From IMG/VR virus record IMGVR_UViG_3300047157_000105, positions 1-64,000 of that record: a DNA stretch of 64,000 nt; one strand, given 5' to 3'. Shown here piece by piece: positions 11,664 through 18,866 of this stretch. Numbering within the stretch: the first letter of the stretch is position 1; every line of letters begins with the position of its first letter. A model generated the notes under the pieces. That model ran no database searches, was not told the origin of the DNA, and saw only the letters and a list, made by a program, of their open reading frames with translations. The position numbers and the translations under genes are program-made. The stretch is from a virus.

Positions 11664-12495
11664 TACAATTGGTTATAAGAATGGTGAATACCTGCCACTA
11701 GAATATTGTGGACCAACAATACTAGATTTTGGATTTATTCATAATGATGCAACATATGATGTAATGCCTATATATGATGGTAAAGCATTCTGTTTAGATA
11801 GACACTTAAATAGATTTGTAGCTTCAGCTGAGTACTACAATCTTGAGTTACCGTATATACATTACTTAGGAATTGCTAGTGAGTTAATGGAAAGGAATCC
11901 AGGTATAAAAAATGGATTTATGTGGTTCATAGCATGGAGAGGTTATCCTGAATCTGGTCAACCAAGAGACATTAAAAATGCACCAGTTAATGTAGCAATG
12001 TATATAAAGCCAAGCTATCCTTTGACAGCAAAAGGTGGTGCAGTAAATGTACAATTATCGGATCAGCCTCGAGTACCTGACAATTATTATAACCAAAGGG
12101 CAAAAAACTTTTCTTGGATTGATTTGACAAGAGCTCAGTTAGGTAAATCAGATATGTTTGACACAGTTGTATTATTAGATCATACTCGTCATATAACAGA
12201 AGGCCCAGGATTTAATGTTGGATTTGTGTGGGAAGATATAGTATATACACCATTAAATAATTGTTTGCATGGCGTAACAATGAGTGTTGTCGAAGATATA
12301 TGTGATGATTCTCCAGGAATAACATTTGTTAGGAATCATTTAGAAGAAGATGTGTGGCATTATGCTGAAGAGATCTTTTTGGCATCATCATCTGGTGGTA
12401 TAACTGCAACACAAAGAACTGGAAAAATAACTGAATGGCTACAACGTGAATATATAGAGAGAACAAAACATTATGACTACACAACAGAACTATGA
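11653..12495 (+). CDS. PLP-dependent class IV aminotransferase (IlvE/PabC/D-AAT family)
   Basis: DFGF...ATYDV, HLNRF, RAKN (catalytic Lys), EGPGFNV, LHGVT, LASS. Confidence 0.85.
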   Translation: MMINTIGYKNGEYLPLEYCGPTILDFGFIHNDATYDVMPIYDGKAFCLDRHLNRFVASAEYYNLELPYIHYLGIASELMERNPGIKNGFMWFIAWRGYPESGQPRDIKNAPVNVAMYIKPSYPLTAKGGAVNVQLSDQPRVPDNYYNQRAKNFSWIDLTRAQLGKSDMFDTVVLLDHTRHITEGPGFNVGFVWEDIVYTPLNNCLHGVTMSVVEDICDDSPGITFVRNHLEEDVWHYAEEIFLASSSGGITATQRTGKITEWLQREYIERTKHYDYTTEL

Positions 12496-13509
12496 TTTAA
12501 AATTAGATTTTGATGATGTATTAATAAAACCTCGTAAATCAATTAAGCCTCTTACAAGGCAAAGTGTTAATATAGAAATACCTTGGTTAGATAAAACATC
12601 GCATCCTATTGTTATTGCAAATATGCCTTCAACAGGAACATATGAGATAGCAAAGCATATGACACCAATGAAAGTGTTTACATTTATTCATAAAGAATAT
12701 ACTGTAGAAGAGCACAAAATCAATTTAGCTATGATGAAAGATCGTAGTTACATTGCTATTACAAGCGGTGTGCAATCATGGGATATAGAAAGAACTATTG
12801 AAGTTATAAGTGAATTTAATGATGTCGGCATAATTAATGTTGATATAGCTAATGTCTATGCTAATGTTAGTGGAATGATTAAAGCTATTCAAACATATAG
12901 AAAACACTTTCCACATATTAAAATATCTGCTGGTAATATATGTGATAAAGATCTTATGGAAGAGTTAGTTAATGCCGGTGCAGATTATATTAAAGTTGGT
13001 GTAGGTTCAGGTGCTGCATGTATTACTCGAACAGAAGTTGGTGTGGGTATTCCACAGTTGAGTGCTGTATTAGAATGTCATGAAGAAGCACAAAAGCTTA
13101 GGATTGTAAAATAATATCTGATGGTGGATGTGTTACTTCAGGCGATGTAGCTAAAGCAATTGCTGCTGGTGCAGATATGGTTATGATTGCTGGTATGGTT
13201 TCTAGTTGTTATGAATGTAGTAATATGGTAGAGATTGATGGTCAACAATATGTAAATCTATATGGATTAGGTTCAACAAAACAATATAATATACATGGTG
13301 TAACTGAAAAGGAATATAGACCAAATGAAGGTAGAGATCTAATGATACCTGCAAAAGGTCATATCAAAGATATTATTAATCAAATACTTGGTGGATTAAG
13401 AAGTGTATGTACTTATGTGGGTGTATCTCACATTACACAGCTATCTTCTCATGCTGAGTTTATTAGAGTTAATAATACTCATAATAGAAGCTTAGAGAAA
13501 TATGGATAA
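12473..13509 (+). CDS. guaC: GMP reductase (one frameshift near 13100, probably sequencing error)
   Basis: LDFDDVLIKP, ANM, KVGVGSGAACITR..VGVGIPQLSAV; continues in another frame CKIISDGG..GDVAKAIAAGADMVM..EG..LGGLRSVCTYVG. Confidence 0.85.
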
Positions 13510-14215
13510 TTATTTACAACAGATTTTAAATCATAAACGATTTGGAATAGGTATTGTATCATCGGGAACAACAGGAGAACCAAAGCTTATATGGAGATCG
13601 CCTGATAATCTTCGTGCATGTAATGAAGTTGCTATACATGCTCAGCAATTAACTAGCAAATCTAAAGTATTAACGGTAACAAAAACCGATCATGCTGGTG
13701 GATTACTATTACAAACATTGCCGGCATATACCTTAGGGTGCAAAGTCATTGATGTAGAAAAGTTTAATGCATTTAATTTCTTAAAGAAGATAAAAGGATA
13801 CACACATACATTCCTAACACCTGAGCAAATGAAAGCTGTGATGATGACCAAAGGTTTTAAAGATTGTGACTTAAGTGGTATACGAATATTAGGTGGTAGT
13901 AATCCAGTTAGTTGGGAAATAATAGAAGCGTTTGTATCAAAGGGAGCACTTGTTCAACCTAATTGGGGTATGAGTGAAATTGGCCCGATGGTAATCAATA
14001 TTGAGATAGATAGTATAGAGCATATAGAATATTTAAAACAAAGAACGCCTAAAAGTTATACTATATTAGGTAATGCATATTGGTGTGATTGGAAAATAGT
14101 TGACCATGAGTTATATGTTAAAAGCGATATGTGTATTGAACCTGGGTGGTTTGCTACAGGAGATATCGTTGCTTTAGATATGGGTAAAAGAATGTATTAT
14201 AAGGGAAGAAAATAA
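13502..14215 (+). CDS. truncated adenylate-forming (ANL/AMP-binding) enzyme
   Basis: SSGTTGEPK P-loop, WGMSE, ATGD, KGR motifs within 237 aa. Confidence 0.75.
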   Translation: MDNYLQQILNHKRFGIGIVSSGTTGEPKLIWRSPDNLRACNEVAIHAQQLTSKSKVLTVTKTDHAGGLLLQTLPAYTLGCKVIDVEKFNAFNFLKKIKGYTHTFLTPEQMKAVMMTKGFKDCDLSGIRILGGSNPVSWEIIEAFVSKGALVQPNWGMSEIGPMVINIEIDSIEHIEYLKQRTPKSYTILGNAYWCDWKIVDHELYVKSDMCIEPGWFATGDIVALDMGKRMYYKGRK

Positions 14216-14796
14216 TGGAACCATACTTTAAACTTATTGAAGGCATAGACTTTACACCAAAGACACGACAAAAAATTGCAGATAATATTTTAGCAAACTG
14301 TGATAATTATTTTAGATCAGGAACTAAAGAAGATAAATTTGGTTTTAATGACTGGAATTGGTTTTGCCCTAGAGATTTAATGCCTAGAGATCTTATGGAT
14401 GAAGTAGGTAAACGATTTAAAATACCTGTAGCTTATGAACTGCTCGGGCAAACTCCATATACATATGGAAAGATTCATATAGACAAACAGATACCTACGA
14501 ATCCGCCTAGAGAGACACTTATTAACTTTCCTATATACCCCTTAAACAAAGATTTATTTTCTCCAACTAATTTTTTTGAGTTAGAAAGTGGAACTTATGA
14601 TGATTATGATAATGCAGTATTTAAATTAAAAGCTTCTGTAGATTATTCAATAGGATTACCTGTTATATTTAATTTACAAGAATTCCATAATGCAGTAAAT
14701 CCTGGCAGTGATTACAGATTTAGTTGTCAATTTACTACTGATATACCATTTCAAGAACTAGTTAATATATACAACCAGGGAGAATTATTTGTATAA
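14215..14796 (+). CDS. 2OG-Fe(II) oxygenase-like hypothetical protein
   Basis: IHID...LINFPI...FHNAVN...RFSCQF. Confidence 0.5.
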   Translation: MEPYFKLIEGIDFTPKTRQKIADNILANCDNYFRSGTKEDKFGFNDWNWFCPRDLMPRDLMDEVGKRFKIPVAYELLGQTPYTYGKIHIDKQIPTNPPRETLINFPIYPLNKDLFSPTNFFELESGTYDDYDNAVFKLKASVDYSIGLPVIFNLQEFHNAVNPGSDYRFSCQFTTDIPFQELVNIYNQGELFV

Positions 14797-14799
14797 ATA
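14792..14799 (+). promoter_or_regulatory. late promoter TATAAATA
   Basis: Exact consensus overlapping the upstream stop codon. Confidence 0.7.
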
Positions 14800-14802
14800 C
14801 AT

Positions 14803-14892
14803 TATATAGTTATTAAGTGAGTCATCTCACCTGGCTTCGGTCTGATAATAACGGGTGTTTACACCTGAGATGGCTCTCTTAATAGCTATATA
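14803..14892 (+). ncRNA. structured RNA candidate (26-bp closing stem with branched interior)
   Basis: 14803-14829 pairs with 14866-14892 with two G-U wobbles and one U-U mismatch; inner GGC-UUCG-GUC and GGUG-UUUA-CACC hairpins. Confidence 0.55.
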
Positions 14893-14909
14893 TAAAACAC
14901 AATACAATT

Positions 14910-15356
14910 ATGATTGAGAAGATATTAGCGGGCACATTAGCCCTTTCATTAGGTGGATGTAGTATGTTAGGCGGTTTCAACGCACTAGATCCCAAGAATT
15001 TAATAAAGACAGCAGCAACAACTGGTGTCACATACGTCATAGCAGGCCCTTTACCGGCAGCGGCCAATGCAGCGACATCTATAGCAGTTGATTCAGTATT
15101 ACCTGAAGATAAACCTGCAATAAGCGATATTGAAGCCGGGAACGAAGAACAATTGAGGGCATTTATGTTTGCAAATGTAACAGAAACCATACTATATGGT
15201 GCAATCGGATTTTTAATATTCACTAATGTTGTCGGTCCATGGGCTGCACAACGAAGAGCAAGAAGGAAAGCAGAACAAGCAGCAGTAGATCAGCGTAGGA
15301 AAGATAAGTATGACGCTATGAAGGCAGAGCTTGCGGCAAGAAGAAGTAAAGATTAA
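14910..15356 (+). CDS. lipoprotein with second TM segment (u-spanin-like topology)
   Basis: LSLGG-C lipobox; hydrophobic TILYGAIGFLIFTNVVGPW followed by basic QRRARRK. Confidence 0.5.
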   Translation: MIEKILAGTLALSLGGCSMLGGFNALDPKNLIKTAATTGVTYVIAGPLPAAANAATSIAVDSVLPEDKPAISDIEAGNEEQLRAFMFANVTETILYGAIGFLIFTNVVGPWAAQRRARRKAEQAAVDQRRKDKYDAMKAELAARRSKD

Positions 15357-16166: not shown

Positions 16167-18008
16167 TTAAGGGACTAAGTTATATATTTCTATAACATCT
16201 TCCTTACCTTTCACTCTAATATCACCTATCTTATGAGATCGTATAATCATATCATCTGGCAATTGAGTCATTGTCATGGAGGAATAAATTGTTGGATATT
16301 GTAAATAATCTCCCCTTCCTGCTGTTGCTTCTAGTCTTGCTGCTAGATTAACAGCATCACCTATTACACTAAAATCAAATCGTGTAGAGCTACCCATATT
16401 ACCGATAATAGCTGGTCCAGTATTTACACCTGTACCAACGTTAATATCAGGTAAGCCTCTATCCTTATATCTTTGTTTTAGTTCTAATGTCTTTGCTTCT
16501 ATTTCAACAGCGGACTTCACCGCCATCTCAGCATGATTAGGCATATCTAATGGTGCACCAAACACAGCCATAATACAATCACCCATAAACTTATCAACCA
16601 TACCACCATTATTCAATATAATATTTGTCATCTCATCTAAGAACTCATTCACTAATACAACTAAACCTTCTGGGTCATCTTTGTTTTTATAATATTCTGA
16701 GATAGGTGTGAATCCAATAATGTCCATAAACAAATAAGACATATCTTTTCTTTCACCACCAAGCTTAAGTAAGTCAGGATTTTTCTGCAGTGCTTTGACT
16801 TGACGTGGATCTAAGTAGTGTTCAAACTGTTTCTTAATCTGTTGCTTCTGTCTAAACTCTAATATGAACCTATTAAACGTGGCATGGAATCCTACAATAA
16901 AGAATGTTAATAATGCCCATGTAATATCTACAAGAACTAATTGTGTGCTAAACATATGTTGGAAGTAATATATACCTCCACCGAATATACCTAATAATGA
17001 TACACCTATTATCCAATAAGGTGTAAATCGTGTAATAAGTATGATTAATATACCTAATACGAATCCAGCCAGTATCTCTATGAGGCTATCATATCTCTTT
17101 ATTGTTTCTCCATCTAATATTGTTTGGAGAGTTTGTGCAGATATAACATAATCATATTGTTCACCCACAGGTGTTGCAACAACTCCGCCTAATCCCTCTG
17201 CTGTCATAGCAACAATGACTGTTGTACCCGCAAGTGGCGTGAAGTCTTCAGACGCAGCACTCATTGTTTTAAATTCTTTATTCCATCTTACCCATACACG
17301 AGCATTCGTATCTGTATTAATTGTAGCATAAGCTGGAACTCTCATAGCCACAATACCAGTCTCATCTGCTTTGACTTGATATGATGGGTCACCTACAGCA
17401 ACACGAATAGTTTCTATTGCCATATTCGGATATACTTCCTCACCTATCTTCATAAGCAATGGAACTCGTCTAACTACACCATCAATCTCAGGAGCTGTAT
17501 TAATAACACCAACACCATTCGCACACTCAGCAAGTTTAGGTAATGGTCCAACCATACCATTCCACTCAAATAGATATGGTAACGGATCACCTATCTTTGC
17601 CACACCTCTCGGCACTGGATTAGATGTTCTCTTTTGTGCTGTACCTGTTTGGGCAATGACTGTGCCATACGTTAGTGTTTCACAGAATACATCATCACTA
17701 CCAAACCTATCTTCCTCACTAAACAATATAGGCATAACAATAATACCTGTTTCTGCATTCCTTAATTGAAGTATGAGGTTAGCAAGTACATCACGATCCC
17801 ACGGCCATTGGCCATGTTCTTCGATTGCTGCTTCATCGATGGTAACTATTGTAACTGCTTCAGAAGGAGTCTTCTCTTCATTTTGCAATACATAGTCAAA
17901 TGATTTAAGTCTGAGTATCTCTTTGACCCATGGATCTTGCAGACCGATATAGGTTAATGCTATAAGGGTAACAAATGCGATAGACCAATGTGATAATATT
18001 TTCTTCAT
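16167..18008 (-). CDS. CHASE2-domain class III adenylate cyclase
   Basis: N-terminal TM; IDE..IEEHGQWPW.R and DGVVRRVPL (CHASE2); 3 TMs; FMDIIGFT, DKFMGDCIMAVFG, GVNTG, FSVIGDAVNLAARLE. Start MKKILS at 18008. Confidence 0.92.
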   Translation of the reverse strand: MKKILSHWSIAFVTLIALTYIGLQDPWVKEILRLKSFDYVLQNEEKTPSEAVTIVTIDEAAIEEHGQWPWDRDVLANLILQLRNAETGIIVMPILFSEEDRFGSDDVFCETLTYGTVIAQTGTAQKRTSNPVPRGVAKIGDPLPYLFEWNGMVGPLPKLAECANGVGVINTAPEIDGVVRRVPLLMKIGEEVYPNMAIETIRVAVGDPSYQVKADETGIVAMRVPAYATINTDTNARVWVRWNKEFKTMSAASEDFTPLAGTTVIVAMTAEGLGGVVATPVGEQYDYVISAQTLQTILDGETIKRYDSLIEILAGFVLGILIILITRFTPYWIIGVSLLGIFGGGIYYFQHMFSTQLVLVDITWALLTFFIVGFHATFNRFILEFRQKQQIKKQFEHYLDPRQVKALQKNPDLLKLGGERKDMSYLFMDIIGFTPISEYYKNKDDPEGLVVLVNEFLDEMTNIILNNGGMVDKFMGDCIMAVFGAPLDMPNHAEMAVKSAVEIEAKTLELKQRYKDRGLPDINVGTGVNTGPAIIGNMGSSTRFDFSVIGDAVNLAARLEATAGRGDYLQYPTIYSSMTMTQLPDDMIIRSHKIGDIRVKGKEDVIEIYNLVP

Positions 18009-18013
18009 AAACC

Positions 18014-18021
18014 TATTTATA
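18014..18021 (-). promoter_or_regulatory. late promoter TATAAATA for the cyclase gene
   Basis: TATTTATA on + strand; minus strand reads TATAAATA-GGTTT-ATG. Confidence 0.7.
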
Positions 18022-18866
18022 TTAATTCTTGCGTGACTTGAACTGAGCAACCACTAGGATGTAGTGCATGTATTTGTTAAACTATATGATTGCGCTGTGC
18101 TATTATACTGTAATAAATCTAAATCTGTTGTATAAGCTACCAGTTAAATCTATTGTTGCGGTATGGTAGCATCTCCTTCTTTGCATAATGATTCTTCTCC
18201 ATTATCAGTTATATACTATAAGTTATATGATTTATCTTGCCATTGCCTTCTTGTTTAAAGAATATATCATTATTATCACCACCATAATGTATAAATTTTG
18301 CCTCATGGTCTGCATTACCTGTACCAGTTTCTTGTGACCGCCTTTAAATTTGTGTCACCACTATGAAGATCTAATTGACAGTGTGCCCACCATATTCTGC
18401 TGTAGCATAGAATCACATGTTGTATGAAGTTCGCATCAGCGTCAAATGTTTTACCTTGGCAAAAATGAACAGTATTATCATTAGTATTAATATGAAATCC
18501 TATTCGATTAGCATCTGATCCTGTAGTATTACAATATTGCTTCGATACTTTAAAGTATTACCTGAACCATCTAAGTCACCACCCCAAGATTGCCAGAACC
18601 CCAATGCCGTAGTATAACCCACACTAATGCATCTTCATTTCCCTCTTGGTCAATTGTAACTGTATTATCATCATGTGCTACCTTAGAAATTGTACTACAT
18701 TATCATCACCATCTTGGGTTATATCTATTGTTAGGTTATCGCTCGTACCAACTTGTGTAATGTATATTTCGTTATTGGCAAACACAGAACCAGCCATAAA
18801 AATTATTGGAATATATAATATTATTAATACTAATATGCTACTGACTTTGAATAATAGTGATTTCAC
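18017..18866 (-). pseudogene. curlin-repeat secreted protein, multiply frameshifted in this sequence (likely read errors)
   Basis: Signal peptide then NEIYITQVG..N..IDITQDGDDN; out-of-frame fragments DDNTVTIDQEGN, DLDGSGNTL, NDIFFKQEGNG, GCSVQVTQ. Confidence 0.65.

Follow-up and report, generated by a model that had tools for sequence, protein, structure and literature searches.

The window analysed here is a stretch of 64,000 nucleotides contained in a 140.5-kb virus record (IMG/VR) that encodes a T4-type terminase, sheath, portal, major head protein, UvsW-type helicase, gp46-like protein and DNA polymerase. The major head protein shares only ~52% identity with its counterparts in Synechococcus phage S-SKS1, the Methylophilales Melnitz phages and Pelagibacter phage HTVC008M. 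Because a T4-type gene set is here combined with so low an identity of the major head protein, the virus is, as judged from its genes, a distant and uncultured marine T4-like myovirus. Our analysis concerns a structured element that lies on the plus strand between a 193-aa ORF and a lipoprotein gene, at a locus with the following features (positions are those of the window):

14215-14796, plus strand: upstream ORF of 193 aa without a family assignment, the last gene of the element-bearing cassette; its homologues precede family members A, H and J
14792-14799, plus strand: late promoter, an exact T4-type octamer that follows a conserved G and overlaps the stop codon at the end of ORF 14215-14796
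14803-14829, plus strand: 5' arm of the basal stem (P1), defined by fold and covariation; its first 24 positions are homologous family-wide
14833-14842, plus strand: apical hairpin 1, 3 pairs with a UUCG tetraloop; pair probability ~0.69
14853-14866, plus strand: apical hairpin 2, GGGUG/CACCU, 5 pairs with a UUUA loop; pair probability 0.69-0.96
14866-14892, plus strand: 3' arm of P1, defined by fold and covariation
14893-14909, plus strand: A-rich unstructured linker to the ATG, 17 nt, without a Shine-Dalgarno sequence
14910-15356, plus strand: lipoprotein gene, 148 aa (phrog_19883)

The 148-aa lipoprotein belongs to no Pfam family, and its layout is that of a single-component spanin. Two look-ups for an exact database record of the lipoproteins at loci L011 and L006 found none. 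Convergent to the lipoprotein block, a minus-strand gene (16167-18050) encodes a CHASE2-adenylate/guanylate cyclase (Pfam CHASE2, Guanylate_cyc), and this gene adjoins the lipoprotein locus in most relatives. An IMP dehydrogenase/GMP reductase-like gene is present in the window as two ORFs in different frames (12473-13114 and 13177-13509) that match positions 2-207 and 232-337 of Pfam IMPDH; relatives carry one ORF of 335-352 aa, and the alignment places a 2-nt insertion near 13104-13110, which is either a frameshift or an assembly error.

The 140.5-kb genome contains 44 exact late-promoter octamers, the one at 14792 included. The density of structure behind this one is by far the highest among the 44, and comparable structure was found behind none of the other 43, for which reason we rejected the idea that the element is a general feature of the late promoters of this phage. 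In nine of the 44 cases only 3-6 nt separate the octamer from the ATG of an ORF (47-613 aa), one of these, on the minus strand at 18021, being the CHASE2 cyclase gene, and many late mRNAs of the phage would be leaderless or nearly so.

A structured RNA selected in the gene-sense orientation

An earlier note on this DNA, made from the letters alone, had described a 26-bp stem with strand-specific G-U pairs, and a sequence check together with folding bore out both the coordinates and the pairs. Positions 14803-14829 pair with 14866-14892 to give 26 pairs and one U-U mismatch (14818/14877), and the two non-Watson-Crick pairs of the stem (14810/14885 and 14822/14873) are U-G on the plus strand and would be A-C on the minus strand. 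The cUUCGg hairpin that the stem was said to enclose was found at 14833-14842, and the second enclosed hairpin at 14853-14866, as GGGUG/CACCU, with a UUUA loop that contains the conserved U-rich UUUAY motif of the family. The plus strand folds with a minimum free energy of -39.8 kcal/mol (z = -7.3), which none of 200 shuffles equalled, and the minus strand with -29.6 kcal/mol (z = -3.8). In this fold of the window the start codon is unpaired and lies 17 nt beyond the structure. The base of the stem (14803-14892) gives way to an A-rich stretch with no U-tract, as had been claimed, and the terminator scan called no intrinsic terminator at 14803-14900.

Searches against known families returned nothing that accounts for this structure. 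Rfam 15 gave 0 matches at the gathering threshold over the whole window and, around the element with E values up to 10, chance matches only, the best of which was mir-3473 with 17 bits against a threshold of 71.8. A tRNA/tmRNA scan found none, and the locus had no blastn match among 50,697 phage records. The RNA thus stands outside any recognised family, as the earlier note had suspected, and neither a known repeat nor a terminator, which the note had named as speaking against its own proposal, was found by Rfam or by the terminator scan.

We gathered copies of the element through its end patterns and through homologues of an upstream AMP-binding gene, and confirmed them with a covariance model. 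The sample comprises 13 distinct members (A, which is the copy in the window, H, J, C, D2, E, E2, F, G, I, B2, B1 and D1), all from uncultured marine T4-like myoviruses of one lineage. In the 13-sequence alignment, 96.7% of the cells are paired over 23 homologous pairs of P1, and 10 of these 23 pairs show changes on both sides (35 cells); not one of 500 column shuffles reached the P1 values. When the partner was slid by one to three columns, P1 pairing fell to 35-50%. An earlier test of P1 on 6 distinct sequences had given the same picture. The stem measures 24-27 pairs across the members, and in six other members, those with a compact interior, the 4-pair counterpart of apical hairpin 1 covaries at all four pairs.

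The same alignment also distinguishes the two strands. All wobble cells (36/36) are G-U on the plus strand and correspond to A-C mismatches on the other strand, and the covariance model scored 82.6 bits on the plus strand versus 44.6 bits on the minus strand. Several positions are conserved in sequence as well as in pairing: U16, G17 and G19 are invariant within the paired stem, and a U-G pair at column 8 is present in 9 of the 13 members. The invariant U of column 16 corresponds to 14818 in the window, and in six A5 members it faces A twice and U four times. Unpaired motifs are conserved too, namely CAC on the 5' side and the U-rich UUUAY before the 3' arm (alignments A3, A4 and others). The apical hairpins carry UUCG or GNRA tetraloops throughout the family, both of which are hallmarks of RNA, not DNA, structure. 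Since compensatory changes, strand-specific G-U pairs and UUCG/GNRA loops indicate selection on RNA rather than on duplex DNA, the element is a selected RNA that is read in the gene-sense (+) orientation. The proposal of a structured plus-strand RNA is thereby supported by the z score of the fold and by covariation in 13 homologues, and the collection of homologues that had been suggested as a check delivered compensatory changes both at P1 and at the apical hairpin.

Three further ideas about the element were discarded. A leader peptide translated from the 3' arm would lack its start codon in B1, and the end of its frame varies, running into the gene in H. Interior loops that would pair with the start region as antisense RNA, on the model of P1 c4, gave duplex energies no better than those of shuffles (z from -2.6 to +0.9). 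The UGAUGA/UGA arrangement of a kink-turn occurs only in the interiors of B1, G and I.

Placement and exchange of the element among related phages

All 13 members lie between the lipoprotein gene and the stop codon that precedes it, which belongs either to the AMP-binding gene or to the 193-aa ORF, and the stem begins ~6-10 nt past this stop codon. Downstream of each member a short open leader runs to the lipoprotein ATG, unless a second element comes in between; the linkers in the members other than A measure 9-21 nt and are of similar composition. The conserved G with the octamer stands 3-4 nt 5' of the stem in 12 of the 13 members, a spacing that is found behind both of the upstream genes, which terminate in different frames. 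Scans with exact and degenerate end patterns (IMG/VR, JGI metagenomes) gave matches at the same locus only, a scan for the second arm type gave four chance matches, all inside coding DNA, and an alignment-query search for further lipoprotein loci in IMG/VR brought nothing new. Each genome has one locus, occupied by a single element or by two in tandem (two loci carry a tandem pair), and no second copy was found in the 140.5-kb record or elsewhere in five related records. A MITE-like mobile palindrome was rejected, given the single locus per genome examined and filled and empty sites that differ beyond the inverted repeat.

Most relatives of the lipoprotein gene in IMG/VR lack the element, and there the promoter octamer lies 5-6 nt before the ATG. 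The 148-aa lipoprotein, 100% identical, occurs behind four different upstream genes, with the element only in the version behind the 193-aa ORF. The element is also absent from distant relatives of the cassette that end at a convergent gene. At loci L072-L081 and at 14792-14912 of the window, the junction to different upstream genes always falls at the G and late-promoter octamer, and the promoter appears to be a preferred recombination site at which cassettes are exchanged. At loci L090-L098, many short Logan/ENA contigs with the AMP-binding gene stop ~30-45 nt past the element, in the opening codons of the lipoprotein gene, and this variable junction appears to be a point where assemblies break.

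Comparison of the element with its flanking genes revealed opposite trends within and between subtypes. Members of one subtype resemble each other more closely in the element than in the flanking genes (95.6% vs 85-86% for A/H, and 92.4% vs 79.7% for E/F), whereas between subtypes the element is the less conserved part (70.7% vs 82.8%, and 59.6% vs 79.5%). Arms and interiors are mosaic, J combining the second arm type with an A-like interior. At the D locus each tandem element has its own promoter, and the spacer between D1 and D2 copies the final ~20 nt of the AMP-binding gene upstream together with the promoter octamer, a duplication that is, by its sequence, a footprint of unequal recombination. 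B2 is without a promoter of its own, which was lost in the fusion with B1. On the minus strand at L031, the 3' end of D1 itself reads as an exact late-promoter octamer. Given the conservation within and between subtypes, the mosaicism and the footprints at the tandem loci, the family is, as far as these patterns tell, a set of discrete selected element types that are exchanged by recombination.

Possible function of the element

The reading that we favour, with a rough probability of 45%, is that of a portable module of late promoter and hairpin, which would provide the lipoprotein mRNA with a base-paired 5' end and serve as a putative stabiliser or as a processing stem of the RNase III type. 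Late transcripts of T4 start 5-7 nt after the promoter octamer. By this rule late transcription would start inside the first turn of the 24-27-pair stem, and the octamer of the window indeed ends 3 nt before the stem, in line with the earlier note, which had placed the stem start at about the expected late +1. Because of the start expected from the T4 rule and the spacing of 3-4 nt between promoter and stem, the 5' end of the mRNA would be fully paired, with no single-stranded overhang. Such an end may protect the mRNA against decay that depends on the 5' end, an effect known from 5'-terminal stem-loops of the ompA type. Instead of this, or besides it, the RNase III of the host may cut the two-turn stem, the phage itself encoding no RNase III, and the lipoprotein mRNA would thereby be detached from transcripts that read through from the upstream gene cluster. 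At loci without the element, the late mRNA would be essentially leaderless, with the promoter 5-6 nt before the ATG; the element would therefore replace a leaderless mRNA by a capped and leadered one. An action in cis is favoured because no terminator follows the stem and because the start codon is open.

Several observations do not fit this module easily: (i) 24-27 pairs, a U-U mismatch, a near-invariant U-G pair and the interior loops CAC and UUUAY are more than a plain stabiliser needs, and the conserved mismatch, wobble and loops suggest a specific protein or nuclease partner; (ii) most relatives manage without the element before a 100% identical gene; (iii) elements stand in tandem at two loci, and B2, one of these, has no promoter of its own. 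Moreover, since the element always travels with the AMP-binding/193-aa cassette, it could serve this upstream cassette instead. The locus offers a natural comparison, with the identical lipoprotein produced from a gene with the element (~110-nt leader) and from one without (5 nt, effectively leaderless), and because the same lipoprotein occurs in both settings, what a 5'-terminal hairpin does to a late mRNA of a phage can be tested directly. In light of the spanin-like layout of the lipoprotein, the module may tune a lysis function.

A somewhat less favourable view must be taken of a free-standing late small RNA of ~90-145 nt, which the promoter would drive, which RNase III or RNase E would free from the leader and which would act in trans, for instance as a decoy or binding site for a protein of host or phage; we regard it as rather unlikely. 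Each of the tandem D elements has its own promoter, and sequence is conserved inside the paired stem (U16, G17, G19, the U-U mismatch and the column-8 U-G pair). The conserved interior loops and the RNA-specific tetraloops point to a folded particle, presence or absence in a hyperplastic region is typical of accessory functions, and discrete types are swapped between genomes. However, the element has neither a terminator nor a defined 3' end, it only ever occurs directly before the lipoprotein gene, its interior is without complementarity to the downstream start region, and the phage encodes neither RNase III nor a Ro/TROVE partner. An elaborated version, which we consider unlikely, takes the element as a portable gene for such a late small RNA, with the stem as a processing stalk and with a particle that would bind a specific host or phage protein, for instance as a decoy against a host defence system or nuclease, its types being exchanged between co-infecting phages. 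This particle would be recognised by its conserved U-U mismatch, by its U-G wobble and by two loops, CAC and UUUAY.

Another possibility, which we judge quite improbable, ties the element to the 3' end of the upstream (tailoring) cluster or to the space between cistrons, where it would act as a protective hairpin, as an RNase III site or as an insulator without a U-tract, so that transcripts of the cluster would end, or be uncoupled, ahead of the lipoprotein gene. In its favour are the facts that the AMP-binding/193-aa cassette is the only one found in front of the element, the other upstream partners of the lipoprotein gene never being followed by it, that its stem starts ~6-10 nt after the stop codon, and that the interior subtype tracks the upstream gene (A, H and J all lie behind the 193-aa ORF). 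Yet a promoter is kept between stop codon and stem in 12 of the 13 members and in two frames, and a pure 3' element needs none; distant cassette relatives that end at a convergent gene do without the element, and a U-tract is missing.

Recombination at the level of DNA, with promoter and inverted repeat as the crossover point of a PeSL-like cassette or of a small palindromic mobile element, is in our view very improbable. While the element does sit at the exact junction of one 100% identical lipoprotein gene with four upstream genes, while the D1-D2 spacer repeats the end of the upstream gene (~20 nt) and the promoter, and while arms and interiors are mosaic between members, there is one locus and none elsewhere in five related records, and the junctions with other upstream genes share the promoter only, without the hairpin. 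The compensatory changes, the strand-specific G-U pairs and the UUCG/GNRA loops speak for selection at the level of RNA.

A riboswitch or another ligand- or temperature-switched leader is hardly tenable: the interior loops are conserved and two copies of CACCUG (14828 and 14862) could pair with the single CGGGUG (14852), all positioned as the earlier note had stated, but this alternative pairing, real as it is, lies 3.2 kcal/mol above the main fold, makes up ~1% of the ensemble, rearranges the apex only and is confined to the A/H/J interior subtype, and the switchable leader derived from it is not supported, given a P1 of 24-27 pairs with a pairing probability of ~1, too stable to switch, an ATG that is not sequestered and lies 17 nt outside, and the lack of a visible expression platform, of a terminator and of any Rfam riboswitch match.

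Comparison with known systems

The portable 5' module that we favour resembles several known systems in part. Stabilising stem-loops at the 5' ends of bacterial mRNAs, of the ompA 5' UTR type, were reportedly described by Emory, Bouvet and Belasco in 1992. Akin to these, the element would place a hairpin at the very 5' end of the mRNA, with little or no overhang, ahead of an open translation start. For stem-loops of this class a distance of 0-2 nt from the 5' end is expected, and the spacing of 3-4 nt puts the start predicted by the T4 rule in the first turn of the stem. Unlike the ompA type, the element has a stem of 24-27 pairs, a conserved interior with several hairpins, and conserved mismatch and wobble positions.

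Stems cut by RNase III are known from T7 early mRNA, with sites such as R1.1, and from the processing stalks of rRNA. Like them, the element is an imperfect double-stranded RNA of about two helical turns that lies between cistrons, with an interior domain enclosed as in an rRNA stalk, and all members reach the length of an RNase III substrate (at least ~20 pairs), which makes the element a candidate substrate by length. In contrast to the T7 case, it has no sequence relation to the T7 sites and belongs to a phage that encodes no RNase III. The Y RNAs (YrlA) of bacteria and phages offer a further parallel, as RNAs of ~100 nt whose 5' and 3' ends meet in a long, imperfect and conserved stem around a variable interior; the element differs from them in having no Rfam YrlA match and no tRNA-like domain, and a search for TROVE/Ro in the phage gave no match.

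Structured leaders also occur at late promoters of T4 itself, inhibitory for e, I-TevI, soc and 49 and activating for 25 and 38 (PMC3014915). In e and I-TevI the ribosome-binding site is masked by the structure, and since the 5' arm of the hairpin contains the late promoter (PMC3014915), late transcripts do not carry the structure. The element agrees with these leaders in that an RNA structure adjoins a T4-type late promoter before a late gene, possibly one related to lysis, but in contrast to e and I-TevI its promoter lies upstream of the whole hairpin, with 3 nt between octamer and stem, and the start codon stays free of pairing. By sequence, the A/U-rich start region of the lipoprotein gene (14900-14920) closely resembles the RegA operator of T4 gene 44 (PMC3014915).

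Cassettes of promoter and stem-loop (PeSL/PmSL) are found at the breakpoints of gene cassettes in T4-type phages (PMC2839356, PMC4122927). They carry sigma-70-like early or Mot-dependent middle promoters with a short terminator stem-loop 5' of the promoter, and there are many per genome (PMC2839356, PMC4122927). Like a PeSL, the element is a unit of promoter and stem-loop that lies in a hyperplastic region, at breakpoints of cassette insertion, deletion or swapping; unlike a PeSL, it has a late promoter with a long branched hairpin downstream and occupies one locus per genome. Matches to sigma-70-like promoters in the region numbered 11, against 14.6 expected from shuffles.

Taken together, the family and the architecture of the element are new, while the kind of element is already known. 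Hardly any structured RNAs have been charted in uncultured marine T4-like phages, and the element adds to them a covariation-supported family without a catalogue entry, one that illustrates how RNA modules linked to a promoter travel with gene cassettes in hyperplastic regions.
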